Source: a phage
Strand: one strand, 5' to 3'
DNA: 64,000 nucleotides
Sequence record: PV467749.1
In this document: positions 1,940 to 52,383 of the stretch, piece by piece
How the letters are laid out: each line of letters starts with the position of its first letter
How positions within the stretch are numbered: the stretch's first letter is position 1
The notes under the pieces: model-generated
The model's database searches: none
What the model was told of the DNA's origin: nothing
What the model saw: only the letters and a program-made list of their open reading frames with translations
Made by a program: the position numbers and the translations under genes

Positions 1940-2539
1940 ATGAGTCTTAATTCTTTTAACCGTAACTATGGTATGTCTGCTACTGCTCGTGAATACTGGG
2001 GTGGTAACAATGGTTTCGTAACCATCGTTGTTGATCTACCAGCAGATGTTGAAGTTGGTACTACCGCTGTTACTTCTGACGGTTCCGAAATTCAAGATGA
2101 AGCACTACAAACTGCAATCAGCAATGCTCAATACAACCAATTCATGATTACCCAACTACTACAACAACGTGCAGTACTAGTTACTACTTCCGTACTAGCT
2201 CTAGACACCGCTGTTGTTATCCCTGCTGACTTTAAAACCGTTGGTGGTAACGTAATCGCGTTTGGTACTAGTGGTGCTGATGTTACAGGTGGTGCTGGTT
2301 CTGTTGCTCTAACCTTCATCTGTGAACGTCAAGACGTATTTGACAAACAAGAAGTTCGCCCAGGTGCTGCTTACTCTGTACCAGTTGATCCAACTGTTGA
2401 ACTAGCTAAAGCTATTGCACAAGCTAAATTCTTCCGTACCAAATCTTATGTTGCTCTAGGTACTGATGGTGTTGGTGATGCTGCTGCCGCTGACGCTGTT
2501 GCAATTAAAGTTCGTGCTGCTCTACCAGTACAACTATAA
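1940..2539 (+). CDS. putative virion structural protein, paralog A (Ala/Val/Thr/Gly-rich)
   Basis: ATG with GGAG RBS; strongly biased codon usage typical of highly expressed late genes; paralogous to next ORF (shared QQRAV..ATS and ER.NVFDK motifs). Confidence 0.7.
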   Translation: MSLNSFNRNYGMSATAREYWGGNNGFVTIVVDLPADVEVGTTAVTSDGSEIQDEALQTAISNAQYNQFMITQLLQQRAVLVTTSVLALDTAVVIPADFKTVGGNVIAFGTSGADVTGGAGSVALTFICERQDVFDKQEVRPGAAYSVPVDPTVELAKAIAQAKFFRTKSYVALGTDGVGDAAAADAVAIKVRAALPVQL

Positions 2540-2554
2540 TAGGGGGACTACAAT

Positions 2555-3244
2555 ATGTCTAATACTAATACTTCTTTTGAACGTATCAATGGTTATTCCT
2601 TTGATAAAATTCTAGGTTACTTCTGTGGCAAAAACGCCCTAGCATCTATCGCAATTAGTAAAATTGGTAATGTTAACGTGCGTGTTACTGGTGCAGTTGG
2701 TTCTTTCGCTGGTCTACAACGTTTCCTAAACACTGATGTAGCTGATGAAATCGTTGCATATCTAAACGAAAAAGGTATCATCCGTATCGATGGTACTCCA
2801 TTTGAAGCAGCAACTCTAGAAGCTGATTATAACGCTGCTTACGCTGCACAAACTAACGTTAAACGTATCGTTGATGTTGTTCAACAACGTGCAGTTATCA
2901 TCGCTACTTCCGAAATCGCTGGCAACGACGTTGAGCCATTTGCAGTTACTGGTTTTACCAACGCTGCTGACGGTATCCTAAGTGTTGGGTCTGTTGATAT
3001 CGCTAGTGCTTCAGTAGTTACTTTCCTCGTTGAACGTGCTAACGTATTTGATAAAGATATTCAATCTTTCCAAGGCGTTCCAAGTACTGAGATCGAAGAA
3101 GGCCGTCTACTAATTGATGACCTAACCGCAGTTCCACTACTCGCTAAAGATGGTGTTACTGAAGTTGTTCTACGTTCCCAAGCTGCTGATGCTGCTGGTG
3201 ACTTCGGTATCAAACTATTCAAATTCATCCCAGCGATGGTTTAA
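2555..3244 (+). CDS. putative virion structural protein, paralog B
   Basis: RBS AGGGGGA 7 nt upstream of ATG; paralog of 1940..2539; followed by strong terminator. Confidence 0.7.
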   Translation: MSNTNTSFERINGYSFDKILGYFCGKNALASIAISKIGNVNVRVTGAVGSFAGLQRFLNTDVADEIVAYLNEKGIIRIDGTPFEAATLEADYNAAYAAQTNVKRIVDVVQQRAVIIATSEIAGNDVEPFAVTGFTNAADGILSVGSVDIASASVVTFLVERANVFDKDIQSFQGVPSTEIEEGRLLIDDLTAVPLLAKDGVTEVVLRSQAADAAGDFGIKLFKFIPAMV

Positions 3245-3261
3245 TAAATTAAAGATAAAAG

Positions 3262-3291
3262 AAAAGGAGAGCTTTTGCTCTCCTTTTTTTA
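3262..3291. terminator. bidirectional intrinsic terminator between convergent genes
   Basis: AAAAGGAGAGC-TTTT-GCTCTCCTTTTTTT; A-run upstream, T-run downstream. Confidence 0.85.
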
Positions 3292-4014
3292 TTTGTATGA
3301 ACGGAACCCTTCAGGTAAACCAGGTAGATTCTCTAACCCTTCGTTCGCATTCACTAGCTTTACGTCATAATCATCACTGAAATCATCCGTAGCTAGTTTA
3401 CGCCCCATGTCTCTAACGAAGTTGTCAATAATTTCTTCTTCGTCATTACCTGGATGACCTTCCGCTTTTAACTTTTTCCAAAAGTATTCATTATAATCAA
3501 AAACAAATTCAACTTCATTTGTTTCTGGATTAAGTACTACATCCAAATCAATCCAAGGTTCTTTACGTAAAGTAAAGATTTCCTTTGAATACTCTTGTTG
3601 TGTAATCTCTTCATAACGATATGCAAACTCGATAGCTTTAAGACGTTTGTCATCACCATCAGGCATTAGTTCGATTACTTCCATATCATACTCTTTTTGA
3701 GTAATTGCACCAGTACTTAATTTAGCATCAAGTAATTTTACATTATACTCATCACGGGTAATCTTGGAATACTTCAATTGTACATCTGCCTGTGCTATTA
3801 GATAATCAAGAGTTTCTAATACATTGTATTTCTTTTTGATATCCAACTGTGCTACATCAACTTCATATGGTGTTAGATATGTAAGTTCTGCAACTAACAT
3901 ATCAGCTTCATAATCATCGTTATAGTAGTATGCTTTCGCAATCTCTTTCGCTTTACCAGAAAGTCCCCAATGAGCGGGGACCATCCAGAAAGGAATAAAC
4001 CTTTTTTTAGCCAT
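3289..4014 (-). CDS. hypothetical protein with three SHOCT-like repeats (IT.xEY...K..L)
   Basis: ORF track start is TTG at 4041; first in-frame ATG at 4014 (MAKKRF); repeats SKITRDEYNVKLL / GAITQKEYDMEV / EEITQQEYSKEI. Confidence 0.6.
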   Translation of the reverse strand: MAKKRFIPFWMVPAHWGLSGKAKEIAKAYYYNDDYEADMLVAELTYLTPYEVDVAQLDIKKKYNVLETLDYLIAQADVQLKYSKITRDEYNVKLLDAKLSTGAITQKEYDMEVIELMPDGDDKRLKAIEFAYRYEEITQQEYSKEIFTLRKEPWIDLDVVLNPETNEVEFVFDYNEYFWKKLKAEGHPGNDEEEIIDNFVRDMGRKLATDDFSDDYDVKLVNANEGLENLPGLPEGFRSYK

Positions 4015-4309
4015 TTGATTTCTTACCAAAAATTTCTTCAATTTTCATCACATAATATGTGTCTTCACCACCACCAAGATCTTCAGTGATAGGAGTGTTT
4101 AGTGATGAACGACCGAATACAACCATATCACCAACACAAATATTATGTTCTGCAATTTGCCCATTAGGTAGTACTTTACCTTCACCAACTGAAATCACCA
4201 TACCAACACATGGTGGTTCCACGTTTCCTAGGATAATACCACCAGTACTTTTATTCTGTGCTTCAATTTGACGAACCAGTACATAATCGTTAATCATTTT
4301 AATTTTCAT
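4007..4309 (-). CDS. GroES-like co-chaperonin (Cpn10; functional analogue of T4 gp31)
   Basis: INDYVLVRQIEAQNKSTGGIIL and GDMVVF align with E. coli GroES ([28 protein letters not shown]); start at in-frame ATG MKIKMINDY. Confidence 0.8.
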   Translation of the reverse strand: MKIKMINDYVLVRQIEAQNKSTGGIILGNVEPPCVGMVISVGEGKVLPNGQIAEHNICVGDMVVFGRSSLNTPITEDLGGGEDTYYVMKIEEIFGKKSNG

Positions 4310-4310
4310 A

Positions 4311-4517
4311 TCAGTAACCTCCAGTGTTTGCAAACCATTTACCACGGAAATAAAGATTAGCACCTTTATCACCAGGGGTAAAAACTTCCAACTTCATAGT
4401 CTTTTCACCATTACATTGAGGACAATCATGAGGTTCTTCACGATTGGCAATTTTTACAATCTTTTCTAAACTGTGTTTACATTCTTCTTTTTCACAACGA
4501 TATGTATATAATGGCAT
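4311..4517 (-). CDS. FmdB-family zinc-ribbon protein (68 aa)
   Basis: MPLYTYRCEKEEC...CPQC resembles FmdB-type CxxC..CxxC zinc ribbon; AAGGAAG RBS; late promoter upstream. Confidence 0.7.
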   Translation of the reverse strand: MPLYTYRCEKEECKHSLEKIVKIANREEPHDCPQCNGEKTMKLEVFTPGDKGANLYFRGKWFANTGGY

Positions 4518-4552
4518 TTTTGTCTTCCTTTACTTATTTTTAAATCAAAAAT

Positions 4553-4573
4553 TTGGGGAACTCCATGTTCCCC
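4553..4573 (-). other. stable hairpin in 5' UTR between late promoter and zinc-ribbon gene
   Basis: GGGGAAC-ATGGA-GTTCCCC on minus strand, directly downstream of TATAAATA at 4576..4583. Confidence 0.45.
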
Positions 4574-4575
4574 AT

Positions 4576-4583
4576 TATTTATA
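4576..4583 (-). promoter_or_regulatory. T4-type late promoter TATAAATA
   Basis: Exact TATAAATA on minus strand about 60 nt upstream of ATG at 4517. Confidence 0.6.
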
Positions 4584-5315
4584 TTAGCAACCAGTTACGT
4601 AAATCTTGTATACCGCAATACCAGTGTCTAGAGTTACGTTTAGCATACCAGTTTTTGTAATACCAAGGGTAACAGATTCTGCGTTAGAAACGCGGGATAG
4701 AGCTTGTAGAACACGATCAATGTTATAACCAAAACCAAGACCTAGTTCACCTTCAGTTTTAGAGAATGCTAGTGCACCAACGTGGTTACTTTTGTTCTTC
4801 TCACCAACGTGGAAGTAAAGAGTATCACCTTCAGTGTATGGAGTTACTAGAGAACTGAAAGATTTAAACACACCAGAGAAGCTTTTTAGTTCCTGAACTT
4901 TAGCTGCACTAGGTGTAACCTGTACGTCATATGGTTGTTCGTGGAAACGAGGCTGGGCTGGAATTAGTTTTTCTGGTTGAACCATGAAAGTAGTGCTTGC
5001 ATCTTCTGCTTTGAATGCTAGGCTCTTAACTGCACCATCTTTCAAATTAGAAGTGATAGTAGTTCCTTCAGTACTATAAGTTTTTAGAGACATTAGACCC
5101 TGTAGAAGACCTATGTTACCAAGACCAAAACGACCTTGAACTTCTGGTACGTCTTCTTTAGTGTGAGCACGCATAACTAGGGTGCGGTCATCGGTGTATG
5201 CTTCCATGTAAACACGCTGTCCATCACCACGGTCTTCACTGCTAACTGCGATACAAGAAAAGTCGATGCCGTTGGTAGTGTTAACTAGGTCACGTAGTAC
5301 GTTGCGTAGATCCAT
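4584..5315 (-). CDS. hypothetical protein; possible gp45-like sliding clamp (weak)
   Basis: 243 aa, ACGGAGAA RBS; N-terminal LRDLVNTTNGIDFS loosely resembles T4 gp45 LKNFATINSGIMLKSG; size and position near DNA polymerase fit a clamp; not verified. Confidence 0.55.
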   Translation of the reverse strand: MDLRNVLRDLVNTTNGIDFSCIAVSSEDRGDGQRVYMEAYTDDRTLVMRAHTKEDVPEVQGRFGLGNIGLLQGLMSLKTYSTEGTTITSNLKDGAVKSLAFKAEDASTTFMVQPEKLIPAQPRFHEQPYDVQVTPSAAKVQELKSFSGVFKSFSSLVTPYTEGDTLYFHVGEKNKSNHVGALAFSKTEGELGLGFGYNIDRVLQALSRVSNAESVTLGITKTGMLNVTLDTGIAVYKIYVTGC

Positions 5316-5874: not shown

Positions 5875-8800
5875 TTACCAGGTGAAGAATCCGTTATTAA
5901 CGGCTGCTGTACTTTTCTCATGAATACCAATATCCATATCCAGAATACCAAAAATGTTTTCTAATTTTTTAGTTAGAACTATTTCTTCCATTTTCTCTGT
6001 ATCAAATGGTAGTTCTAGGAACCATTCAGGTAGATATTCCACACAGTCAATTGGATAACCTACTGCTTTGATACCCATCGGGTTATCTTTTAAGTTACAT
6101 ACAATTACTTTTGTACCGTCAGTTACTTCAGGTACAGTTTTGTCATCATATACTTCACGTAGACGGTTCCATTGAATACCTGCTAATACATGACCAACTT
6201 TACATTTACCAGAAACTTCATATTCTGCTTCTAAGTTGGTATAGTTCTTAACAGTTTTCGGTGAACCCTTTTCGTGTACTGGCATGTCTTTAAATACCTC
6301 TTTAAAGTCACGTACACGCTGTTTAAGTTGAGCTTCAGACTCACCCACCAGCAATGCAATTAGAGTCTCTTCTAGGAAGTTCTGGATGTATTTTGGCGTA
6401 TCTGAACGTTTAATTTCAAGACCCATCGCTTTAATTTCACCAGGTTTACCATCAACATCTTTACGGAAACCATCTTCCCAGTACTTGAGAATTGCATAAC
6501 GCTTTTTCTTCAGGAATAGACCACGGGAACCGACCATCTCTAAGTCTGCACCAACAATCTTACCTTTCTCAATACCAGTATTGAACATTTCGTTCATGAA
6601 TGAAGGGAATGATTCACCAACTTCATCACCGATTTTGATATACATGTCAACGATTTCTTCTTTAGAAAGATTATATGGAATACCTTGTTCTTTCAGGTAA
6701 TGAGTTACACTGAAGTAAACGGAGTCAGTATCACCGTAAATCACAGAGCCACCTTGATGATTATAAACACCAGTAGTGATTTCATTGATACGGCTTGCCA
6801 TATGTTTAGTCATAGAACGACCAGTTAAGGTAACGGACTGACCTAAACGCTTATCAAAGAAACGTGAACCTTTGTTCAATAGTGCACCATATAGACTGTT
6901 TAGAAGAATCTTACGAATTTGCTGGTTCTGTTTCCAGAATGCACTTTGCTGTTTGAAGTAATTCTTATCTTCCGGTGCACAGAAAATACGACCATCTTTC
7001 AGTACTAAACCATTTTCCACAATGAGTTTTGCAACTTCTTCCCATTGACCTTTACCAATAGCAATACGTAATAGATAAACAGGATCATTGTCATGTAAGT
7101 TTGTACGGAACATTGTACCACTTGTGTAGTTAGATAGCAAAGGTTCAACCTTCTCAGAACCATTGAATTCCCACCCATCACTATACATGTGTTTGTAGTC
7201 GATTACCATTTTTTGTTGTGCTTTACGCTCAGAATACCATTGAGTAAGAATATCTGGAATTACACCATACTTAGACTTATCAAAAAGTGTTCCGTTAGCA
7301 CTTAGTACAATAGTACTGTCTTCAGCAAAGATAATATCATACAATTCTTTACCAGTTGCATTGAACGAACTACCATCTTCTAAATCAACAATCAAAGTTT
7401 TGTCAGATTTTTCATGAACCATTGTAAATTCTACAGCAGCAAATAAACCATGCCATGCAGCGGTCCAATCAGGTTCAAACGCTTTAGATTTGGATTTAGC
7501 TTTTTGCTCTTGTACTTTAGCAGCAAGATATGCATCAGTGTAGTCTTGACGAAGTTGTCCAAGAATACATTCAGTACTCATGCCAAGTGTACGTAGTACA
7601 GTTGGATACAATGAGTTAAAGTCTGTACATCCCAAATCGCTAACAAGGCCAAGAACTGGATCTTGAACCCATGCACCAGCAGCTTTTGCACTGATTTTCT
7701 CATCTTCTTCATCACCTTCTTCACCATAGTACTCCATCTCTGGATCTAACTCAAAATCATCCTTCGGTGCTTTGTTAAAAACAACTTCACCGCGTGAGTG
7801 AGCGAGGTTGATAATAGCAGTGTCGATTAGTGCAACAGAACCCATTGTGGTACTAATTAGTACACATTCTTTATGAGCAAGACGGTTATGCAGGTTGATA
7901 AAGTCACATTTAGCATCAATTTTCTTTAGAAGAATACTATCCTGCTTAGAATAACGCAAGAATGTAATGTAATCTTCTCGGTATAATTTATCCAAAGAAC
8001 CTTCATAGGATACTTTGTTTTCTTTAGTTACTTTTTCAGCAATATAATCTAGTTTGTACGACTGTTCAACTTGACCAGCATGTTTCTTATAAAGAGCAAG
8101 ATAGTCTAAGTGTACACGACCAATAAGATCATATGTTACTACAGTTTTACCAAAGTTATCAGCTTCACGAGCATTTGGTTTTTTATTCCACAAACACCAA
8201 CGAGCAGTAGTTGCTTCGTTGAAGATTTTCTTGGTACGGTTTACCATATATGGAATATCAAAGAATTCACTGTTCCAACCTGAAATTACATCAGAGTCAT
8301 CGATTAGACTAAAGAACTCCATAAACATTTCTTTCTCATCCGTATAAAGGATGACAGTACTGTTAGGGTCGTTAGTTTCTTCGTTTAACTGACGAACAAT
8401 ATCTTGTGCTTCGTACATTTCCATATCTGTTGGTGGCAAAGTAAGTACATAATCCTTACCAGTCCATGATTGATATAGAGAAATTGCAGTTACACGGTTG
8501 AATGGATCTGATGGTGGAGCATAACCAAACTTCTTATGGAAGTCGGTTTCGATATCGAAAAATGCTACGTTCAAATCCGGCGAACCTTTACCCATGTATT
8601 CTCTAGCCAACGTTTTGAAGGTAATGTTGCAATCACTTTCAAAAATACGCAGACCTTCATTTTTATGTTGCTCAACGCTTTTATTCATCTGTGATTGAGT
8701 TTCAAACTCCAAATGCTTTGCGTTAGTTCCATAAATTGTTTTGTGTTCACCAGTAGGACATTCAACATAATATTCATATACTGGGTCCAACTGACGTAGA

Positions 8801-8880
8801 ATACGTTTACCGTTTTTACGTTCTGCTACGTGCAAAATATCACCAGTACGTTTACGTTCCATATAAGCATCGATATACAT
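5875..8880 (-). CDS. DNA polymerase, family B (T4 gp43-like) with 3'-5' exonuclease domain
   Basis: Exo motif FFDIETD and polymerase motif VIYGDTDSVYF; 1001 aa; AAAGGAA RBS. Confidence 0.95.
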   Translation of the reverse strand: MYIDAYMERKRTGDILHVAERKNGKRILRQLDPVYEYYVECPTGEHKTIYGTNAKHLEFETQSQMNKSVEQHKNEGLRIFESDCNITFKTLAREYMGKGSPDLNVAFFDIETDFHKKFGYAPPSDPFNRVTAISLYQSWTGKDYVLTLPPTDMEMYEAQDIVRQLNEETNDPNSTVILYTDEKEMFMEFFSLIDDSDVISGWNSEFFDIPYMVNRTKKIFNEATTARWCLWNKKPNAREADNFGKTVVTYDLIGRVHLDYLALYKKHAGQVEQSYKLDYIAEKVTKENKVSYEGSLDKLYREDYITFLRYSKQDSILLKKIDAKCDFINLHNRLAHKECVLISTTMGSVALIDTAIINLAHSRGEVVFNKAPKDDFELDPEMEYYGEEGDEEDEKISAKAAGAWVQDPVLGLVSDLGCTDFNSLYPTVLRTLGMSTECILGQLRQDYTDAYLAAKVQEQKAKSKSKAFEPDWTAAWHGLFAAVEFTMVHEKSDKTLIVDLEDGSSFNATGKELYDIIFAEDSTIVLSANGTLFDKSKYGVIPDILTQWYSERKAQQKMVIDYKHMYSDGWEFNGSEKVEPLLSNYTSGTMFRTNLHDNDPVYLLRIAIGKGQWEEVAKLIVENGLVLKDGRIFCAPEDKNYFKQQSAFWKQNQQIRKILLNSLYGALLNKGSRFFDKRLGQSVTLTGRSMTKHMASRINEITTGVYNHQGGSVIYGDTDSVYFSVTHYLKEQGIPYNLSKEEIVDMYIKIGDEVGESFPSFMNEMFNTGIEKGKIVGADLEMVGSRGLFLKKKRYAILKYWEDGFRKDVDGKPGEIKAMGLEIKRSDTPKYIQNFLEETLIALLVGESEAQLKQRVRDFKEVFKDMPVHEKGSPKTVKNYTNLEAEYEVSGKCKVGHVLAGIQWNRLREVYDDKTVPEVTDGTKVIVCNLKDNPMGIKAVGYPIDCVEYLPEWFLELPFDTEKMEEIVLTKKLENIFGILDMDIGIHEKSTAAVNNGFFTW

Positions 8881-8903
8881 CGTTTGTATTCCTTTACGTT
8901 TAT

Positions 8904-8938
8904 TAAGTTAAAAATAAAGCCCCCATTCATTGGAGGCT
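8904..8938 (-). terminator. putative terminator between gene 8963..9268 and DNA polymerase
   Basis: Imperfect hairpin AGCCTCC-AATGAAT-GGGGGCT followed by TTTATTTTTAA on minus strand. Confidence 0.4.
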
Positions 8939-8962
8939 ATAAAGTTTAGTTTTTAGTACTTA

Positions 8963-9268
8963 TTAGTAATCGTCATCTGCTTGTGGCAAATTGTTAGTAA
9001 CACTTAGGATAGTTTCGATGTTATCGAGTTTGTTTTGTTTATCAAAGTAATCGCCTTTGTAGATACGTTGAGCGGCTTGTTTGATATCGGATGCATCAAT
9101 ACCTAGTTCATCAGAGATGGAACTAATGAAATCTGCATAGGATGCTTTGGTATCGTCAATAAAAGTAAGTTGTACTACTGCGTTGTTTAGTGCATCACCT
9201 AGACGTTTACGTTGTTCATCATTTAGGTCACGAATTTCAACTTTAACTTCTTTTTTAGCTTTTGCCAT
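8963..9268 (-). CDS. hypothetical protein (101 aa)
   Basis: ATG with GGAGAAG RBS; no recognisable motif. Confidence 0.6.
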   Translation of the reverse strand: MAKAKKEVKVEIRDLNDEQRKRLGDALNNAVVQLTFIDDTKASYADFISSISDELGIDASDIKQAAQRIYKGDYFDKQNKLDNIETILSVTNNLPQADDDY

Positions 9269-9291
9269 TTGTTTGCTTCTCCATGTGTTTT

Positions 9292-9327
9292 GAAAAAAAT
9301 GTCATCTCACAACCGCTGTAAGATGAC
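9292..9327 (-). terminator. intrinsic terminator downstream of tail fiber gene
   Basis: GTCATCT-13 nt loop-AGATGAC followed by TTTTTTT on minus strand. Confidence 0.7.
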
Positions 9328-9330
9328 TAC

Positions 9331-9360
9331 ATTGTATCACTACTTTAAAAGTTGTCTCAA
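9331..9360 (-). promoter_or_regulatory. sigma70-like promoter TTGAGA-N18-TACAAT overlapping terminator
   Basis: Minus strand ttgagacaacttttaaagtagtgaTACAAT; same TTGAGACAA -35 context as promoter at 5383..5412. Confidence 0.4.
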
Positions 9361-9367
9361 TATTTTT

Positions 9368-11077
9368 TTAATAACCAATTGTTGTCCAGTACACGCCCAG
9401 TCCACGTGGATTATCATCATTTGGGTTAGCTGCACCAACAGCAATCTGTGAGTTACTTAAAATATTACCATGTGATGCCCATGCAGCATCATTATCTGGA
9501 CGACCTGATACTCTACCAGTTACTTGTAGATTTAAACAAGCATTTGGGTATGGTATAGGTAATGTTACAGTTACATACGAGTCATCCCCTACTGCCAAGT
9601 ATCCCCACTGGGTTATCATACCAGTATTGTTATCTTTATACCAGCCATTTTGTGTCAACGACGCAGAAGTTGTTGTGGTAGATATAGTTACATTACCACT
9701 TGCATCTGCCGCAGTACCGTTAACTGAACGTACAATGTTTTTACCAGATACTGTTGCAGAGTTAGAACTAACAACCAACGATGGAGAAGTTAGTACACCA
9801 GATGAGTTAATTGTAACTTCCGAACCACCATTACTTCTCAAACGTAATGTATTGTTAGATGAACTATGATAAATTGCTGCACGTTCACCATCAGTAGCGT
9901 TACGGAAGTAAAGTACTAATGAAGTGTCATTTGAACGTATAGAAGCACTGTTAGCAATAGTCAATGAACCAGTCATTACATCACCAGTTTTAAGTACATA
10001 ACGGGTGTTTGCAACTTTTTCACTCAAAGCAACGTTGGACTCAGCAATGTTATATAAGTATGCCACATTGAAGTGTGGTACGTCAATATTACTAATTCCG
10101 TGGCTGTGTGCTTGACCACTACCAACGGTATTGGTTGAACCACTGAAACTATGCACGTGATCAGGTGCTTCGTTAATGTTATTAATTACAGTTGGGATTC
10201 CGTTGTCGTTACTGGATGTTAACGCATTAAGACCACTTCTGTCCATACCTTTTAGTGCCTGACTATGACCATGACGACCAGCAGCACCAGTAGTTCCACT
10301 GAAACTAAATGAGTGCGGTGGAAGTTGAGCAATTGATATCGCAGTACCACTAATTGATGCACTACTTGCAATCACACTATCAGTTTTAGTTACGCCTGAT
10401 GTGGTAATGCCTTTCAAGTATGCTTCTTGGTTAAGATTCGGAACTTGTTTTGTGATTGTACCATTTTCACCAACCCATTGCCACCACATTCCATCAGCAA
10501 AACACCAACCATCAGAAGTTTTCCACGGAGAACCTTGTGAACCATTACGACCACTTTGACCATTGGTTACACCAGACATCTGTTCACGAATACTAGCAAC
10601 AGTTTGTCCAGAAGTCAATGAGTACTGGGTAATTGCACCAGGCTTCATTGAAGTATAAAGACCTGTTGGGCCAGTACCGCTACTTGATGGAGTAGGGAAT
10701 ACGATATTTAAATTCGTACCACTAATGCTCGCACTTGGAACAGCACTACTACTATATGTTACAGTTTCAACTTTTAAATTCAGTTTACGGTTCACTTCAT
10801 CGAGTGAAATACGGATTGGTTCAAGAATTGTATCAGTATCGTATACTGCAATCCAACTTGTCCCGTTGTGGTATTTTAACACCAACTCATTTCTATCAAA
10901 TACCATCGCACCTTGCTCACCTGCTGGCAATGCCTGTACTGGTAAAATGACAGAAGATGAATTAAAACGAATAGGTCTTGGATTAGTTGGTGTACCACCA
11001 AGCACTATTAGTTCTAAAGATCCATTAGCACCAGTACTAGTCATAGTATCCAGTGGGTTATTAAAACTTATGCTCAT
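9368..11077 (-). CDS. tail fiber protein (Ser/Thr/Gly/Asn-rich, with HxH motifs)
   Basis: 569 aa fiber-like composition; HGHS, HVHS, HSHG motifs reminiscent of metal-binding HxH repeats in T4 gp37/gp12 fiber tips; terminator downstream. Confidence 0.8.
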   Translation of the reverse strand: MSISFNNPLDTMTSTGANGSLELIVLGGTPTNPRPIRFNSSSVILPVQALPAGEQGAMVFDRNELVLKYHNGTSWIAVYDTDTILEPIRISLDEVNRKLNLKVETVTYSSSAVPSASISGTNLNIVFPTPSSSGTGPTGLYTSMKPGAITQYSLTSGQTVASIREQMSGVTNGQSGRNGSQGSPWKTSDGWCFADGMWWQWVGENGTITKQVPNLNQEAYLKGITTSGVTKTDSVIASSASISGTAISIAQLPPHSFSFSGTTGAAGRHGHSQALKGMDRSGLNALTSSNDNGIPTVINNINEAPDHVHSFSGSTNTVGSGQAHSHGISNIDVPHFNVAYLYNIAESNVALSEKVANTRYVLKTGDVMTGSLTIANSASIRSNDTSLVLYFRNATDGERAAIYHSSSNNTLRLRSNGGSEVTINSSGVLTSPSLVVSSNSATVSGKNIVRSVNGTAADASGNVTISTTTTSASLTQNGWYKDNNTGMITQWGYLAVGDDSYVTVTLPIPYPNACLNLQVTGRVSGRPDNDAAWASHGNILSNSQIAVGAANPNDDNPRGLGVYWTTIGY

Positions 11078-11118
11078 GTATAAATCCCTTTAATGATTAA
11101 TATATACTATATTTATTA

Positions 11119-11427
11119 CTATAGCAAGTCGTTTTCCATATCGTCAAGAACAGAATCAACGATGTTCGCTGCTATCTTCTTAGGCATCTTGAACCACTCG
11201 GTGTTAGGTTGCCTTACTGCGTTCATTTGTTTTAGTCTTTTGTGAATTTCTTTCTCTGCTAAACGTGCATCTTCAAAGTGTACTTCATGGTATACCACAA
11301 AATCTCTAAAAGGTGTAGCAGTTTGATATGTCCTTAAACGTTCTGTCATTTCAGATTTACTGGTAAATCCTATCTTAACATAATCAGGCCACGCATCATT
11401 TACTATAACATAACATATCTGTGACAT
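11119..11427 (-). CDS. stand-alone GIY-YIG-like (T5orf172-type) nuclease domain protein
   Basis: ICYVIVNDAWPDYVKIGFT...R...Y fits GIY-YIG/T5orf172 pattern; start chosen at ATG with GGAGA RBS (track ORF starts 15 nt upstream). Confidence 0.65.
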   Translation of the reverse strand: MSQICYVIVNDAWPDYVKIGFTSKSEMTERLRTYQTATPFRDFVVYHEVHFEDARLAEKEIHKRLKQMNAVRQPNTEWFKMPKKIAANIVDSVLDDMENDLL

Positions 11428-11466
11428 AGAAAATATCTCCATCAGTAATATGAAGATATTTATTAA

Positions 11467-11817
11467 TCAAGTAATTCGGAAATTTACCCCAGCATCAATT
11501 AGGCGTTGGAATGGGTTTTGTGGCTCGAATTCAGAAGGAGTTTTTGAAATGTTCAGTACTGGAGCATCAGCATGTAACTTTGACATACGTTCTTTGTACT
11601 TATCTAAGTATTCTTCATATAACATATCTTCAGTGTTACTATCAAGTATGTCTTCAATAAATGAATCAATACTATAGTCCAGTCTATCATCATTATAATA
11701 CAAAGTTTCACTAGCTTCATCATAACCAACTAAAGTCCCGTATGGAACGTTAATCTCAATTTTTGAGTACTGACTCTTTAAGTACTCTTCTTTCTTAAAA
11801 ATGTATACAGTTAACAT
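11467..11817 (-). CDS. hypothetical acidic protein
   Basis: Track start is TTG; in-frame ATG (MLTVYIF) preceded by AAGGAG RBS. Confidence 0.55.
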   Translation of the reverse strand: MLTVYIFKKEEYLKSQYSKIEINVPYGTLVGYDEASETLYYNDDRLDYSIDSFIEDILDSNTEDMLYEEYLDKYKERMSKLHADAPVLNISKTPSEFEPQNPFQRLIDAGVNFRIT

Positions 11818-11840
11818 CCGTGTCAACTCCTTATGGTTGT

Positions 11841-12938
11841 TTACTTAAAAGTATTTACAATTTCTAAAACACTTTCAAGATACTTAGCATCAAAAGTTTC
11901 AGTAAATCCTGATGGCAACTCTTCAGTACTTACCACACCACTTTCAATGTATTTCTTTATGAACTTTTCCAACAGTAATGGTTGATTGCCATCTTCAAAG
12001 TAGCGTTCTATAAGTACTTCATGCTCGAACTCAGAATTGCGGCTTTGTTCGTTAACACGGCGTTTCATATCACCAGTGATCCCATATTTGTACACCGTCT
12101 TGTTATTGTTAGTTAGTTTTTGTACATAGAAATATCCAGGTTTTGATGGTTGATATCCATATTCACCACATGATGGACATCCTTTACCAGCCATATGTGC
12201 TTTTGGTTGTTGGGAGAAGACACCATGAGTCGGACATACAATATCAATATAATTCTCGCTTAAAGTATATTCAACCAAGCTATAATCATACTTATGGTTA
12301 TGGATAGGCGACACAAGTTCAATGAAACGTTCAGTGCTTCTTCCACCTTTACCAGAACATGTACCGCAGCCAGTTTTACCCTTCAATAAAGTTTGGGCTG
12401 AAACAGTCCATTCGTGTTTACCGCGTGTGCAATATACGGTAACTTCCGTTTTATTGTTAACATATTTGGTATTTGGAAATTCAAACGCACCACCATAGTT
12501 TTCTTTTACTTTTGCGATGAATGATTCAGTACTGTATGCTTCATTTTTATTACAGACAGGACATCCCCTACCAGAAAGAAATTTGTTTGGTGTAATTTCA
12601 AAGTAATCGTTATGGTCTTCATCAGTGCAAAATAGTGTTACTTTTGTTATAGCGTTAGTGTAATTTAGTTTATCAAATTTGAATTTATCTTTACCAAATT
12701 TAGTTTCTACAGTACTGATGAATGTGTCGTTGTTTGAACGCTGTGACATGTTTGAATAACATGATGCACATGTACATGCAATGTGACGAAGTGCAGACTT
12801 GGTGTTTTCTTTCCCACACTTGTTACATTTTACTGTTGTTTTACTTGCCTTGAATACTAAAGTACTGAAGTCAAATTCTCCATACTTAGCAGTCATTTGG
12901 TTAATAAACTCTTCTTTGTTGATACTTACGTTTGGCAT
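11841..12938 (-). CDS. homing-endonuclease-like protein: repeated Cys/His zinc-ribbon-like modules + C-terminal GIY-YIG-like (T5orf172) domain
   Basis: Four repeats of ...Y.....C..HG.F.Q.P..H..G.GC..C; C-terminal PGYFYV...KYGIT...R; consensus sigma70 promoter upstream. Confidence 0.8.
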   Translation of the reverse strand: MPNVSINKEEFINQMTAKYGEFDFSTLVFKASKTTVKCNKCGKENTKSALRHIACTCASCYSNMSQRSNNDTFISTVETKFGKDKFKFDKLNYTNAITKVTLFCTDEDHNDYFEITPNKFLSGRGCPVCNKNEAYSTESFIAKVKENYGGAFEFPNTKYVNNKTEVTVYCTRGKHEWTVSAQTLLKGKTGCGTCSGKGGRSTERFIELVSPIHNHKYDYSLVEYTLSENYIDIVCPTHGVFSQQPKAHMAGKGCPSCGEYGYQPSKPGYFYVQKLTNNNKTVYKYGITGDMKRRVNEQSRNSEFEHEVLIERYFEDGNQPLLLEKFIKKYIESGVVSTEELPSGFTETFDAKYLESVLEIVNTFK

Positions 12939-12970
12939 ATTTTTGTCTCTTTGATAGCGTGTATGTGCGT

Positions 12971-12999
12971 ATTATACATAACCAAAAACATCATGTCAA
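12971..12999 (-). promoter_or_regulatory. consensus sigma70 promoter TTGACA-N17-TATAAT
   Basis: Minus strand cattGACAtgatgtttttggttatgTATAATacg, just downstream of capsid terminator and upstream of endonuclease gene 11841..12938. Confidence 0.65.
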
Positions 13000-13009
13000 T
13001 GTTTTTAAT

Positions 13010-13034
13010 AAAAAAAGGGACTCCGAAGAGTCCC
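13010..13034 (-). terminator. strong intrinsic terminator downstream of major capsid gene
   Basis: GGGACTC-TTCG-GAGTCCC followed by TTTTTTT on minus strand. Confidence 0.85.
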
Positions 13035-13078
13035 TATTGTTTTTAATTTCTTGATTAAATCTTTTAAATCGATTATAA

Positions 13079-14254
13079 TTACATGAAAGTAACGTTTTTG
13101 ATAGCGATTTTGCTGTAGTAGTCAGCAGCGTTACCTAGTGAACTGGTGCTATCGGTCAACTGTACATAGCCATATCTGGTTAGAAAAGTTGTAACGAGTT
13201 CCCCAGTGTTAGGGTCCATTACAGTACCGGAAGCCATTAGTGGGATGTATGGGCAATAGAACACACCAGCATCAGTTTCAGCGTTACCTTTGTAACCAAT
13301 TAGGATATCTTCAACATCACTTGCATAGGTATCAACGAAGATACGCATGGTGCTGTTTAGAGTACCAACAAATTTAACGTTAGTTGGAGCTTCGAAAGTA
13401 CCTTCAGTAGTACGTGCAAAACTAGAAGTAGTTGCAGACTGTAGAATGGTTAGAGCGGTTGGAGAAACAACAGCCCAGTTCGCAGCACCACGTTTGGTAC
13501 GACGAGCAACTTCGTTCGCTTGACGGTTGATTAGGGTAGCTAGAGCAGCGTGCTCGTCACCAACGAAGGTCGCAACACCAGTAACTTTAGATTGGTCATA
13601 AGTTACAGCAGCAGCACCAGGTAGTGCACGTAGACGGCTTAGTAGCTCTTGGTCGATTTCAACGGTAACTTCTTGAGCGATTGCAGCCATTAGTTCAGCT
13701 TCAACGTCAATACCATGTTGGGATTGTGCATCTTGTGCAGATTCAACAGTCCAACGTGCAGATAGACGACGAGATTTCGCTTCAACAGTTTCACGTAGAA
13801 TACGGATGTTAACGCGACGACCCATAGTACCTTCTAGTTGGCTAGTAGGAGCAGCTTGTGGGTTGCTGTTGTCTGCGTTTAGGTCACCAGTATAAGACTT
13901 AGCGATTTTGTATGGAGAAAGCATTTCTTCACCAGCGATAACACCAGGAGCGTTGTCAGCATATTGAACACGTAGGGTGTGGATCTGACCAACTGGGCCA
14001 GTCATTGGCTGAACACCGATGATTTCGTTAGCGATTACGGTTGGCATAACACGACGCATAATTGGTAGAATCACTTTGTTTAGAGTAGCGATGTTACCAG
14101 CGGTGGTTGCACCAGAAGTAGCAGATTCGTTTAGCATTAGTTTACGATGGTTATCAAGTACGGTTTCCATTACGGACTTACGAGTACCTTGTAGACCTTC
14201 AACTAGTTTCTCTTTAACTGCTACCCATTTGGATTCATTTAGTAGTTGTGACAT
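13079..14254 (-). CDS. major capsid protein (T4 gp23-like)
   Basis: IIGVQPMTGPVGQ vs T4 gp23 ICGVQPMNSPTGQ; VEAKSRRL...SAQDAQSQHGIDVEAEL vs IEAKSRQL...LAQDLRAVHGMDADAEL; IGYKGNAETDAGVFYCPY vs VGYKGPNEMDAGIYYAPY; AAGGAGAT RBS, TATAAATA upstream, strong terminator downstream. Confidence 0.92.
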   Translation of the reverse strand: MSQLLNESKWVAVKEKLVEGLQGTRKSVMETVLDNHRKLMLNESATSGATTAGNIATLNKVILPIMRRVMPTVIANEIIGVQPMTGPVGQIHTLRVQYADNAPGVIAGEEMLSPYKIAKSYTGDLNADNSNPQAAPTSQLEGTMGRRVNIRILRETVEAKSRRLSARWTVESAQDAQSQHGIDVEAELMAAIAQEVTVEIDQELLSRLRALPGAAAVTYDQSKVTGVATFVGDEHAALATLINRQANEVARRTKRGAANWAVVSPTALTILQSATTSSFARTTEGTFEAPTNVKFVGTLNSTMRIFVDTYASDVEDILIGYKGNAETDAGVFYCPYIPLMASGTVMDPNTGELVTTFLTRYGYVQLTDSTSSLGNAADYYSKIAIKNVTFM

Positions 14255-23372: not shown

Positions 23373-23858
23373 ATGAAGAAAAGATTAAAAGATAGTAAAG
23401 AAGCTGCAAACTATCGAAATGAATTACTAAAGAAGCAAAAAGGAATTGATCCTATAATTAAGGAACCAATAACTAAGCCAGTACTTGATCACTATCACTT
23501 CGAGAATCAACATTGTCGCGGAGTACTCCAGAATGAGATAAACGCCTTTGAGGGTAAGGTTTCCAACGCATGGAACCGATATGGAAAGCATTTAACTGAT
23601 ATGCCATTACATGAAGTACTAAGAAACCTTGCAGATTATCTTGAAAAGAACAATAATATCCCACTGGAAGAACAGGTGATTCATCACACGGCACTAACTG
23701 TGGATGTAAACAAGTTTAAAAGGCTCCCTGCAACGCGTCAGAACGAGATATTGGGGTTATGCGGTATAGAGCCATTACCTAATACAAAAGAACGCTCAAA
23801 GAGAGCTAGAGAGCTTATTAAGAAAGGAATTCTCAATATAAATGAATACAAAAAATGA
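23373..23858 (+). CDS. Endonuclease VII-family protein (T4 gp49-like resolvase)
   Basis: LDHYHFENQHCRGVLQNEINAFEG aligns with T4 endo VII LDHDHELNGPKAGKVRGLLCNLCNAAEG; HEVLRNLADYLEK vs YLEWLENLLTYL; zinc-ligand cysteines apparently absent. Confidence 0.7.
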   Translation: MKKRLKDSKEAANYRNELLKKQKGIDPIIKEPITKPVLDHYHFENQHCRGVLQNEINAFEGKVSNAWNRYGKHLTDMPLHEVLRNLADYLEKNNNIPLEEQVIHHTALTVDVNKFKRLPATRQNEILGLCGIEPLPNTKERSKRARELIKKGILNINEYKK

Positions 23859-24546
23859 TATTTTTATAGATAAAGCAAATATAAAACATAACAACAAATA
23901 TGAATATACATTAGTTGAGTATGTAAATAATTACACTAAAGTTAAAATTATATGTAAGAAACATGGTATGTTTTCACAAACTCCAAATCACCATTTAAAA
24001 GGAAGTGGATGTAATGAATGTTACTTAGAAAGCAAGCACGATACTAAAGATGACTTCATAAAAAAATCCATGAAAGTTCATGGTGAATTATATGATTACT
24101 CAAATGTGATATATAAATCTTCAAAGAAAAAAGTTGAAATTATATGCAATAAACATGGTTCTTTTTATCAGAGGCCACATGAACATATATCAGGTAAAGG
24201 TTGTTCAGAATGTGGAGTTGGTGGTTACAAGAGAAGTAAACCAGGTCGTTTATATGTATATGAAGTTTTACAAGACGACAAAACTATAGCATACAAATAC
24301 GGAATAACTAATGGTACTATTAATAATAGAAAATATTACCATGAGTATCACTCTAACTTAAAATTTAATTGTGTTTATGAACTATATGATGAAGATGGTA
24401 ATGTTCCATATAATATAGAAAAAGCAATAAAAGCTGGCATGAAAAGTGTTTTTTTATCAAAAACTATTTTAGAAGTTGGGTATACCGAAACGATAGAACC
24501 GTCTTTATATGAAGATTTGATTAATATAATAAAAAAAGGGAGCTAA
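23842..24546 (+). CDS. homing-endonuclease-like protein: two zinc-ribbon-like modules + GIY-YIG-like (T5orf172) domain
   Basis: Repeats YEYTLVEYVNNYTKVKIICKKHGMFSQTPNHHLKGSGCNEC and YDYSNVIYKSSKKKVEIICNKHGSFYQRPHEHISGKGCSEC; C-terminal PGRLYVYEV...KYGIT. Confidence 0.8.
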   Translation: MNTKNDIFIDKANIKHNNKYEYTLVEYVNNYTKVKIICKKHGMFSQTPNHHLKGSGCNECYLESKHDTKDDFIKKSMKVHGELYDYSNVIYKSSKKKVEIICNKHGSFYQRPHEHISGKGCSECGVGGYKRSKPGRLYVYEVLQDDKTIAYKYGITNGTINNRKYYHEYHSNLKFNCVYELYDEDGNVPYNIEKAIKAGMKSVFLSKTILEVGYTETIEPSLYEDLINIIKKGS

Positions 24547-35712: not shown

Positions 35713-36477
35713 ATGAAATATGCAACAACCAGATCAACAAAATACAAATTTGTAACCAACGCCATTAGAGTGCATGGTATGCGTTATGATTATAGTATGG
35801 TTAAATATCATAATGCTAAAACAAAGGTGTGGATCGGATGTGAGAAGCATGGGTTTTTCCTACAAACACCAAATGACCATACATGTGGCAAAGGATGCAT
35901 GGAATGCTCGGTTGAGTATAATGCGAATCGTCAGAAAAGTCCACAGAACTTTATAAATTTTCTTAATAAGGCTAATTTAAAGTTTAGAAATAAATTTGAT
36001 TATAGCACAGTAGAATATGTTAATAATAAAACTCACATATCCATAATATGCCCAACACATGGGTCTTTTTTACAAAGACCTGATAATCATTTGTCAAGTA
36101 AGTATGGTTGTGAGAAATGTATGATTGAATCAACGCAATCAAAAGCAGTAACTGATATTGAAAAAATGATATCTTTCACTAATTATGTTAAAGAAAAGCG
36201 TTTTGATGATTGTAGAAACATATTAACTTTGCCATTTGATTTTTATATTGAAGATTTAAACTTGTGTATTGAATATGATGGTGAACAACACTTTCGATGT
36301 TCTGAACATTGGGGTGGTGACAAATCGCTAAAACAAACTCAACACAATGATAAAATTAAAAACACGTACTGTGCTGACCATGATATTAACTTACTTCGTA
36401 TCAAATACGATGAAGATCATATCATCGTACTAAAAAAGTACTTTTATGATAATTTTAACATAATATTAAAGGATTAA
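35713..36477 (+). CDS. homing-endonuclease-like protein: two zinc-ribbon-like modules + C-terminal PD-(D/E)xK (DUF559/Vsr-like) nuclease domain
   Basis: Repeats YDYSMVKYHNAKTKVWIGCEKHGFFLQTPNDHTCGKGCMEC and FDYSTVEYVNNKTHISIICPTHGSFLQRPDNHLSSKYGCEKC; C-terminal LCIEYDGEQHF...LLRIKYDE. Confidence 0.8.
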   Translation: MKYATTRSTKYKFVTNAIRVHGMRYDYSMVKYHNAKTKVWIGCEKHGFFLQTPNDHTCGKGCMECSVEYNANRQKSPQNFINFLNKANLKFRNKFDYSTVEYVNNKTHISIICPTHGSFLQRPDNHLSSKYGCEKCMIESTQSKAVTDIEKMISFTNYVKEKRFDDCRNILTLPFDFYIEDLNLCIEYDGEQHFRCSEHWGGDKSLKQTQHNDKIKNTYCADHDINLLRIKYDEDHIIVLKKYFYDNFNIILKD

Positions 36478-49996: not shown

Positions 49997-50030
49997 AAAA
50001 AGGAGAGCATTTGCTCTCCTTTTCTTTTTT
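49997..50030. terminator. bidirectional terminator between giant ORF and ClpA gene
   Basis: AAAAAGGAGAGC-ATTT-GCTCTCCTTTTCTTTTTT; near-identical stem to terminator at 3262. Confidence 0.8.
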
Positions 50031-52355: not shown

Positions 52356-52383
52356 ATTATATCACATTCTTTGCGTTTGTCAA
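52356..52383 (-). promoter_or_regulatory. consensus sigma70 promoter TTGACA-N16-TGTGATATAAT for ClpA gene
   Basis: Minus strand ccTTGACAaacgcaaagaatgTGaTATAATgtt about 40 nt upstream of ATG 52317. Confidence 0.65.

Follow-up and report, generated by a model that had tools for sequence, protein, structure and literature searches.

The stretch of phage DNA analysed here (sequence record PV467749.1, 64,000 nucleotides (nt); hereafter the window, whose full length supplies all position numbers) contains a tail fibre gene located between a gp23-like capsid gene and a family-B DNA polymerase gene, in a block whose features all lie on the minus strand (Table 1). In the direction of transcription, the capsid gene is followed by an open reading frame (ORF) of 365 amino acids (aa), an ORF for a 116-aa acidic protein, a small ORF with a T5orf172 domain (the mini-gene), the 569-aa fibre gene, a 101-aa ORF and the polymerase gene. 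By megablast, the region groups with the Asteriusvirus-like jumbo coliphages of ~350-385 kb (the 121Q/PBECO4 group), and its closest matches are Turkey3 (94.4% identity over 100% of the query) and vB_Ec-M-J (97.9% over 89% of the query). An initial annotation had described the block as an early-promoter, endonuclease-rich cassette and had suggested that the fibre gene was horizontally mobilised. What was observed directly, namely the anatomy, the homologies, the synteny, the statistics of motifs and the mosaic of identities, leads to another interpretation: the capsid-to-polymerase block is very probably ancestral in the Rak2-like jumbo myoviruses and encodes a probably late baseplate fibre of the gp098 type, with the fibre tip and a homing endonuclease gene (HEG) as exchangeable modules.

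The inventory of the initial annotation holds, all its features being present on the minus strand where it had placed them. This applies to the fibre with its HxH motifs (HGH269, HVH307 and HSH324) and its siting between the DNA polymerase region and the capsid gene, to the endonuclease gene with four repeats (60-67 aa each, sharing F-I...C...CxxC), to the small acidic ORF, to the terminator and to the consensus sigma70 promoter, which is one of two perfect sites in 64 kb, with 0.17 expected. The co-oriented unit between this strong promoter and the terminator was likewise borne out. The location of the other fibre genes at 55.7-64 kb was approximately right, since tail-protein and tailspike-like genes are found at 58.1-62.3 kb, where they form a separate fibre/spike set.

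Table 1. Features of the capsid-to-polymerase block, in the order of transcription
Feature	Coordinates	Strand	Basis or remark
gp23-like capsid gene	14254-13079	-	ORF call and profile search
Capsid 3′ synonymous patch, candidate co-conversion tract or target site	13130..13202	-	Last ~120 nt of capsid ORF
Capsid terminator	13035..13006	-	-14.1 kcal/mol, z -4.1; invariant in 7 Asteriusviruses; directly upstream of sigma70 promoter
Sigma70 promoter TTGACA-17-TATAAT, 12/12 match	12999..12971	-	Heads endonuclease gene
Putative 365-aa free-standing HEG: four zinc-finger repeats and C-terminal T5orf172-like domain	11841..12938	-	PHROG, repeats, motif
116-aa acidic protein, pI 4.39	11467..11817	-	PHROG 15724
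Second predicted late promoter box AATAAATA	11464..11457	-	36 nt upstream of conserved mini-gene start
102-aa stand-alone T5orf172 (GIY-YIG-fold) protein	11119..11427	-	Fixed core gene
Predicted late promoter box AATAAATA, core ATAAATA	11117..11110	-	39 nt upstream of fibre ATG
Fibre ORF, 569 aa	9368-11077	-	ORF call
Fibre N-terminal part and shaft, aa 1-464, three HxH motifs	9686..11077	-	PHROG 13229, tblastn
Fibre tip, aa 465-569, Gp53-like_C/R-pyocin foot type, no Tfa gene after it	9368..9685	-	Pfam, PDB
Sigma70-like promoter TTGAGA-18-TGnTACAAT for 101-aa ORF	9331..9360	-	Abuts terminator hairpin
Intrinsic terminator, 11-bp stem, 5-nt loop, T7 run	9327..9292	-	-15.2 kcal/mol, z -4.2
101-aa acidic ORF	9268-8963	-	Between fibre and polymerase
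Family-B DNA polymerase gene	8880-5875	-	ORF call and profile search

An ancestral site for a gp098-type fibre

The relatives share the order capsid, acidic ORF, ~102-aa T5orf172 ORF, fibre, ~100-aa ORF and DNA polymerase, with two genes that are not always present, namely an endonuclease gene after the capsid gene and a Tfa gene after the fibre. This order was found in 12 Asteriusvirus-like coliphages, among them 121Q, PBECO4, Turkey3, EcMJ, WPEC5, G17, fEgEco12, phAPEC6, Turkey5, A4 and ph0011 and, outside the coliphages, in K64-1 (Alcyoneusvirus), CBB (Mimasvirus), Munch, fHe-Yen9-04 (Eneladusvirus; hereafter Yen9-04) and Hallingskeid, whose hosts are Klebsiella, Pectobacterium, Salmonella, Yersinia and Erwinia, respectively. 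The fibre gene lies between capsid and polymerase in every relative examined (at least six groups of Rak2-like phages) and, because this synteny is shared across genera, its site is considered ancestral to the whole Rak2-like group and not the product of a recent insertion. The synteny comparison proposed in the initial annotation thus speaks against a mobilised whole fibre gene. Flanked by the two exchangeable modules, the fibre shaft, the T5orf172 mini-protein and the acidic ORF would together form the stable core of the block. Apart from the mini-gene and the acidic protein, the fibre locus is an ordinary one that fits known kinds. An Rfam scan of positions 8700-13300 (E <= 0.1) gave no matches.

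Over aa 1-496 the fibre matches PHROG 13229 'tail fiber protein' (E 1.5e-244), and tblastn retrieves orthologues in RaK2/K64-1 (48% over aa 1-514, E 5e-121), CBB (54%), Munch (57%) and Yen9-04 (50%), the identity of the shaft to RaK2, K64-1, CBB, Munch and Yen9-04 amounting to 48-59% over aa 1-463/514. The counterpart in CBB is CBB_260 and that in K64-1 is S2-8. By these matches the fibre is the orthologue of RaK2 gp098 (= phiK64-1 S2-8), a protein for which experimental data exist. It was detected in RaK2 virions by tandem mass spectrometry (MS/MS) (PMC3622015). It is essential for infection, antiserum to its C-terminal part lowers plating and immunogold label is found mainly on particles with contracted tails, from which the authors concluded that gp098 is a baseplate protein and a secondary receptor-binding protein (PMC10253068). 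Its C-terminal domain is pyocin-like, a C-terminal fragment is soluble when made alone, and the g098 gene lies ~230 kb away from the long-fibre cluster of RaK2, its position between the capsid and polymerase genes having already been noted (PMC10253068). Virions of CBB yielded 11 peptides of CBB_260 (PMC5259590). By homology, the 569-aa protein would be a baseplate virion protein serving, once the tail has contracted, as a secondary receptor-binding fibre, in a manner functionally similar to T4 gp12. For the annotation of Asteriusvirus genomes, several of which label the product hypothetical, the name gp098-type baseplate (secondary) receptor-binding fibre is appropriate.

The timing of expression can be approached through the ATAAATA motif. 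In the window this 7-mer occurs 19 times on both strands, and 17 of the 19 copies precede a called gene by no more than 100 nt in the sense orientation, usually at -35 to -55 from the gene start. The upstream-sense fraction expected is 3.9% by position (P 2e-22) and 14% from 20 other A5T2 7-mers (P 2e-13). Because the base preceding the core is unconserved (A5, T5, G3, C4 in the upstream sequences), the AATAAATA box at -39 of the fibre gene is a full match to the lineage motif, conserved in five genera, and not the weak box of the initial annotation; the form TATAAATA is found upstream of the capsid and scaffold genes. The ~60 nt upstream of the fibre ATG are invariant in 8 Asteriusviruses except for one substitution and one single-base gap, in phages whose neighbouring coding DNA differs by up to ~20%. 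Despite differing surroundings, ATAAATA is found at the equivalent place upstream of the fibre in CBB, Yen9-04, Munch and K64-1, which with Asteriusvirus makes five genera, and it also precedes the orthologues of the mini-gene in CBB, Yen9-04 and Munch. The same core was predicted as a late promoter in CBB and GAP32, and a gp55-like gene was reported for CBB (PMC5259590); a scan of ten ORFs of the window, which is ~1/6 of the genome, revealed no gp55-like sigma factor. The fibre gene and the mini-gene would accordingly belong to the late genes by their upstream motifs, and the fibre would most likely be transcribed from its own ATAAATA promoter up to the hairpin at 9327-9292. A hairpin with a T-run, of differing stem sequence, occupies the same place after the fibre in 121Q, CBB, Yen9-04, Munch and K64-1, and a terminator was predicted there by ARNOLD in the annotation of G17.

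Exchange of the fibre tip

In seven aligned Asteriusvirus fibres, aa 1-464 are 81-99% identical, and all that lies beyond the sequence ADASGNVT is replaced. The tip of the window fibre matches Pfam Gp53-like_C (PF21882) over aa 484-569 with 54.5 bits (cut-off 24.9, E 1.7e-14), and its aa 454-540 are homologous to the R1/R2 pyocin fibre foot (PDB 6CXB, 6CL5, 6CT8 and 6CL6, E 6e-12 to 3e-10). This ~105-aa pyocin-like tip, directly followed by the terminator, is 100% identical to that of the window in Turkey3 and WPEC5 and 73.5% identical in Turkey5. A ~70-aa tip together with a Caudo_TAP-type assembly gene (Tfa) is found in 121Q, PBECO4, G17, EcMJ, fEgEco12 and ph0011. Outside these phages, the design without Tfa occurs in K64-1/RaK2 and Hallingskeid and that with Tfa in CBB, Munch and Yen9-04. 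In phage A4 (6115-7268), two genes annotated as 'tail assembly chaperone' and 'putative tail fiber chaperone' follow the fibre gene, which suggests a third tip-module design.

When the window is compared with EcMJ or fEgEco12, nucleotide identity of 98-100% elsewhere falls to 54-66% at 9300-9700 and is recovered by ~10000-10120. On this alignment evidence, the tip difference corresponds to a discrete recombination tract between a conserved shaft and a conserved intergenic region. The tip would be swapped by homologous recombination, a chaperone-less domain resembling the pyocin foot alternating with a short tip accompanied by its Tfa gene. The claim of the initial annotation that a receptor-binding gene was horizontally mobilised thus stands for one part of the gene and falls for the remainder: judging from the identity profiles, only the receptor-binding tip is horizontally exchanged and aa 1-464 follow the phage backbone; synteny and native codon usage also argue against transfer of the whole gene. 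Receptor binding by the tip domain of the window is itself predicted, from its homology. The ADASGNVT junction represents a natural portable point for swapping receptor specificity in jumbo coliphages.

As to composition, GC at third codon positions (GC3) is 0.239 for the fibre, 0.248 for the tip and 0.279 for the HEG, against 0.258 +/- 0.041 for the window genes, and the codon log-likelihoods of the three are all within ~1.3 standard deviations (SD) of the window genes. The higher total GC of the fibre is explained by its Gly/Ser/Thr/Ala-rich composition. Codon usage is hence native, and the test for a foreign origin of fibre, tip or endonuclease by GC, GC3 and codon likelihood gave no signal, all values lying within the same ~1.3 SD range. 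A search of 5.8 billion proteins for the donor lineage of the tip gave only a 100% identical fragment labelled E. coli and one fragment with 68% identity, and no donor was identified.

Endonuclease genes of the block and alternative interpretations

The 365-aa protein matches PHROG 681 'endonuclease' over aa 21-364 (E 1e-76). Its zinc-finger repeats are covered by PHROG 559 and 4605 and give sub-threshold matches to DUF4379 and DUF723, and its Pfam T5orf172 score over aa 268-309 is 17.9 bits, below the cut-off of 20. The GIY-YIG-type motif FYVQK-x9-YKYGIT...RR..E...TETF is invariant in 7 alleles. The gene varies in presence, as the initial annotation had envisaged, and in allele: it is absent in PBECO4 and fEgEco12, three-repeat alleles occur in G17 and WPEC5 (307 and 305 aa), and the Asteriusvirus alleles at this site range from about 305 to 532 aa. 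Homologues at the same site are found in Munch (57% aa identity) and K64-1 (35%), and CBB, Yen9-04 and Hallingskeid lack the gene. Nucleotide identity of the HEG is discordant with that of its surroundings: relative to WPEC5, the flanks are 99.3-100% identical and the HEG 59-82%; relative to phAPEC6, the flanks are 80-86% identical and the HEG 94-97%. Horizontal exchange is therefore required. On the fibre side, the limit of the exchange tract lies no more than some tens of bases from the HEG stop codon.

The sigma70 promoter shows a parallel distribution. It is present, in diverged forms, in the aligned HEG-carrying Asteriusviruses, and G17 and WPEC5 have a TTGACA promoter of their own, different in sequence, ahead of their endonuclease allele. 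In PBECO4 and fEgEco12, the acidic ORF begins ~45 nt after the capsid terminator, and the endonuclease gene and the -35/spacer of the promoter are absent. By these comparisons, the promoter is tied in Asteriusviruses to the sporadic endonuclease and not to the fibre, so that of the early promoter said to head the fibre cassette, the strong promoter itself is real and its assignment to the fibre is not, promoter and endonuclease being missing together in PBECO4 and fEgEco12. The 365-aa gene is thus best described, from its architecture and distribution, as a putative mobile free-standing homing endonuclease gene with its own sigma70 promoter. The other perfect sigma70 site of the window, TTGACA-N16-TATAAT at 52356-52383 (-), is located upstream of a 762-aa ATP-dependent (Lon-like) protease gene (50029-52317) and faces a divergent virion structural-protein gene.

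A candidate trace of endonuclease activity lies at the 3′ end of the capsid gene. Compared with WPEC5 and fEgEco12, 15 substitutions, all synonymous, fall within 13136-13198, and one more is found in the remaining ~1.4 kb compared. The haplotype of the window is common to allele-A carriers of both backbone clades (the window, EcMJ, 121Q, A4 and, partly, Turkey3), and the other haplotype occurs in allele-B and empty genomes (WPEC5, G17, fEgEco12 and PBECO4). The predicted endonuclease would cut HEG-less genomes near the capsid 3′ end and then be copied in by repair, which would drag along a short patch of synonymous capsid changes; the capsid patch is a candidate for what co-conversion around a cleavage site would leave. 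With near-isogenic phages that carry the HEG, lack it or have another allele of it, and with a candidate target patch in the capsid gene, the HEG locus offers a clean natural test case. Genes of this kind are known to cluster beside essential genes, including capsid genes, which are contained in 31% of the neighbourhoods of T5orf172 HEGs (PMC10448857).

Alternatively, the 365-aa protein could have been domesticated as a DNA-binding regulator of the capsid operon, comparable to PLE CapR, or could be a remnant without activity, with patchiness due to loss. The homologues at the same site in three genera, the zinc-finger repeats of the CapR type (PMC10448857) and the C-terminal Pfam score below the cut-off are consistent with this proposal, as is CapR itself, described in PMC8096241 as a domesticated relative that represses a capsid operon. 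However, the discordant identities with WPEC5 and phAPEC6 need horizontal exchange, and the invariant residues of the GIY-YIG-type motif across alleles and the clustered synonymous patch in the capsid gene, as co-conversion would leave it, also count against this alternative, which is considered unlikely.

Other observations concern the endonuclease and its relatives in the window. A string AA(C/G)AAAGAAGAGT of 12-13 nt recurs near the 5′ ends of the HEG (12905-12917) and of the acidic ORF (11782-11794), whose products read MPNVSINKEE and MLTVY.F.KEE there, respectively. A target-site duplication of the 5′ end of the acidic ORF by insertion of the endonuclease was considered and found unconvincing, the only match being 13 nt long (AACAAAGAAGAGT) with a shuffle P of 0.005-0.08; the shared string could be microhomology from an insertion event, but is statistically weak by this P. 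Two further zinc-finger endonuclease paralogues lie on the plus strand: 23842-24546 (PHROG 681, E 4e-50), which adjoins an endonuclease VII gene, and 35713-36477 (PHROG 559 'HNH endonuclease', E 2e-55), which has an ATAAATA box at -35 and is placed between a gp25-like gene and a 1153-aa baseplate wedge gene. The whole structural region, beyond the fibre block, is endonuclease-rich.

The mini-gene belongs to another category. Its ORF (11119-11442) has 107 codons for aa, but conservation begins at the second ATG (11427), a start that gives 102 aa. The T5orf172 domain is well supported (50.6 bits, cut-off 20), which bears out the solo GIY-YIG gene of the initial annotation; the gene is no mobile element, being fixed and 66-77% identical across genera. 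These identities, to the CBB, Yen9-04 and Munch orthologues, are comparable to those of the DNA polymerase (74-79%) and scaffold (67-70%) and exceed those of the fibre shaft (54-59%). With the mini-protein as query, the search of 5.8 billion proteins returned 25 clusters, all of 100-108 aa and at least 63% identical, several of them on ~350-kb sequences, including that of Xanthomonas phage XaC1. Mobile HEGs are sporadic and carry a DNA-binding module beyond the nuclease domain, and the mini-gene shows neither property; it is fixed in these phages, and late expression is probable from its upstream box. In K64-1 (4214-4948), an unrelated 244-aa ORF stands in place of the mini-gene between the homologue of the acidic ORF and the fibre. 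The acidic protein is syntenic in all genera examined and confined to the same phages, and it diverges rapidly, with 29-50% identity between genera; its AlphaFold2 model (pLDDT 61) is too poor for a fold search.

That the mini-protein and its acidic neighbour form a domesticated nuclease module with a late role tied to the receptor-binding gene, and are neither a decayed HEG nor bystanders, is quite improbable; a possible role of such a module would be to make breaks that stimulate exchange of tip cassettes during co-infection. A related proposal holds that the conserved mini-nuclease, perhaps with the acidic protein, drives tip diversification through breaks in or near the fibre gene. It would account for the position of the mini-gene, which directly precedes the fibre gene in four genera or groups at least, with its own ATAAATA box and with the GIY-YIG hallmark residues kept, beside a fibre tip that is a recombination hotspot. 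However, the mini-protein has no DNA-binding domain for site specificity, phages of the K64-1/RaK2 type keep the fibre without it, and tip exchange needs no more than homologous recombination of the ordinary kind, between the shaft and the intergenic region downstream, both of them conserved; the proposal is highly improbable. The stand-alone GIY-YIG-fold protein deeply conserved beside the fibre, the HEG-linked capsid patch and the ADASGNVT junction are points for specialists; the findings on fibre, tip and HEG leave current concepts unchanged.

Could the whole fibre gene nevertheless be the cargo of a mobile, endonuclease-driven, early-expressed cassette recently inserted between replication and head genes? 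The co-oriented block with a perfect sigma70 promoter at one end and a terminator at the other, the two T5orf172-domain genes within it and the variation of both the large endonuclease and the fibre tip between relatives had invited this idea. It is already largely refuted by synteny, the fibre position being kept in every relative examined, five further genera or groups among them. Divergence of the shaft keeps pace with that of the backbone (81-99% identity within the genus, 54-59% between genera), codon usage is native, the small T5orf172 gene is fixed and not sporadic, and no HEG exchange tract takes in the fibre, all of them halting some tens of bases at most from the HEG 3′ end. Moreover, of the 9 possible pairings of HEG state (A, B or none) with tip type (pyocin-like, Tfa-1 or Tfa-2), 7 are seen among 8 phages, and because the two combine so freely, the endonuclease does not carry the fibre along. 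Co-transfer of the tip with the endonuclease was rejected on this free assortment and on the intervening 1.7 kb, which are 99-100% identical where tips differ. The cassette is thus very hard to credit.

Several observations weigh against the preferred reading of the block as an ancestral one with a late fibre and two exchangeable modules. The late promoter of the fibre is predicted from motif and comparative evidence. The HEG-less phages CBB and Yen9-04 carry TGAAACG-N17-TATAAT at the place of the sigma70 promoter, an element of the 'divergent RpoD-like' class described for CBB (PMC5259590), so that the block may have been headed ancestrally by some non-late promoter, and its lack in PBECO4 and fEgEco12 may be due to secondary deletion. 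No convincing terminator was found between 12971 and 9327, and early read-through into the fibre gene is for this reason possible in HEG-carrying phages. For the endonuclease, whose activity and target are putative, cleavage near the capsid 3′ end is probable, and the capsid patch is no clean allele marker, as allele B shares the haplotype of the empty genomes and phAPEC6 is a hybrid. Finally, the fibre is not reported in the phAPEC6 virion proteome, an absence that is uninformative because the phAPEC6 record annotates only a 150-nt fragment there and MS could not find the product of an unannotated gene; as evidence against a virion location it was rejected. At the fibre locus of that record (MK817115.1, ~2385-3995), only the 150-nt ORF gp221c is called. 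A structure masking the ribosome-binding site and silencing the fibre on an early transcript, as for T4 e and soc, was also rejected, its fold being no better than shuffles (z -0.45).

The least probable alternative, in which the fibre-like protein would be an early or middle non-virion factor (surface modification or superinfection exclusion) made from the sigma70 promoter, with ATAAATA incidental, draws on that strong upstream promoter without a good intervening terminator and on the phAPEC6 virion table, but conflicts with the detection of the orthologues as virion proteins in RaK2 and CBB (PMC3622015, PMC10253068, PMC5259590), with the missing annotation that deprives the phAPEC6 table of meaning here, with the retention of the fibre in PBECO4 and fEgEco12 in the absence of a sigma70 promoter, and with an ATAAATA box that is conserved and statistically tied to gene starts.

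Downstream of the fibre, the 101-aa ORF is kept in all genera (54-75% aa identity), has its own promoter and terminator and gives a weak match to PHROG 639 'transcriptional regulator' (E 1.6e-7), as which it is annotated in vB_Ec-M-J. The promoter element T(T)GRRAC-N17-TAYAAT is found in the same place in six genera and resembles the TGAAACG-type promoters predicted in CBB (PMC5259590). In the six genera it ends 3-4 nt before the terminator hairpin, whose stems differ between genera with pairing kept, and a transcript started there would begin inside the 5′ arm of the hairpin. The hairpin may thus end upstream transcripts and, in the downstream transcript, serve as a stabiliser or attenuator at the 5′ end.

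Comparison with known systems

The closest known system is RaK2 gp098/K64-1 S2-8, which has the same neighbourhood between capsid and polymerase, a C-terminus resembling the R-pyocin foot and no downstream Tfa gene. The differences lie in the tip, which is ~39% identical over its first 80 aa, and in the host, Klebsiella versus E. coli here; in addition, the baseplate location and receptor role of RaK2 gp098 are experimental and those of the Asteriusvirus fibre are predicted. T4 gp12 is the functional analogue proposed for gp098, being baseplate-bound, exposed on contraction and endowed with HxH motifs in a beta-structured shaft, and its gene also has a late promoter of the TATAAATA type. However, no sequence homology is detectable, the T4 gene belongs to the baseplate cluster and gp12 needs the gp57A chaperone.

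Similarity to the R-type pyocin fibre (PA0620) is a sequence-level homology confined to the tip. The rest of the fibre is unrelated, and a Tfa-like chaperone gene follows the fibre gene in R-type pyocins and P2-type phages, which is not so for the allele of the window. The tip and Tfa modules of P2, Mu and lambdoid phages correspond to the alternative allele (121Q, PBECO4, G17, EcMJ, fEgEco12, CBB and Munch), exchanged as a unit, and the window differs from them in having the chaperone-less allele.

For the large endonuclease, the seg and mob genes of T4 provide a first comparison, as intergenic free-standing genes with their own promoters, sporadic in close relatives and accompanied by co-conversion of flanking markers in a conserved neighbour gene. 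Their products are GIY-YIG Seg or HNH Mob proteins without zinc-finger arrays, of another nuclease subfamily and with another DNA-binding module. The second comparison is with the T5orf172 HEGs of ICP1, T5-like and other phages (Barth et al. 2023, PMC10448857), a survey in which a term search found no mention of the Rak2-like jumbo phages. Set beside these HEGs by its sequence architecture only, the endonuclease of the window shares with them the 'beads-on-a-string' arrangement of zinc fingers of the CapR/DUF723/DUF4379 type with a putative terminal nuclease domain, the location beside an essential structural gene, the marking of a boundary of genetic exchange and a varying number of repeats.

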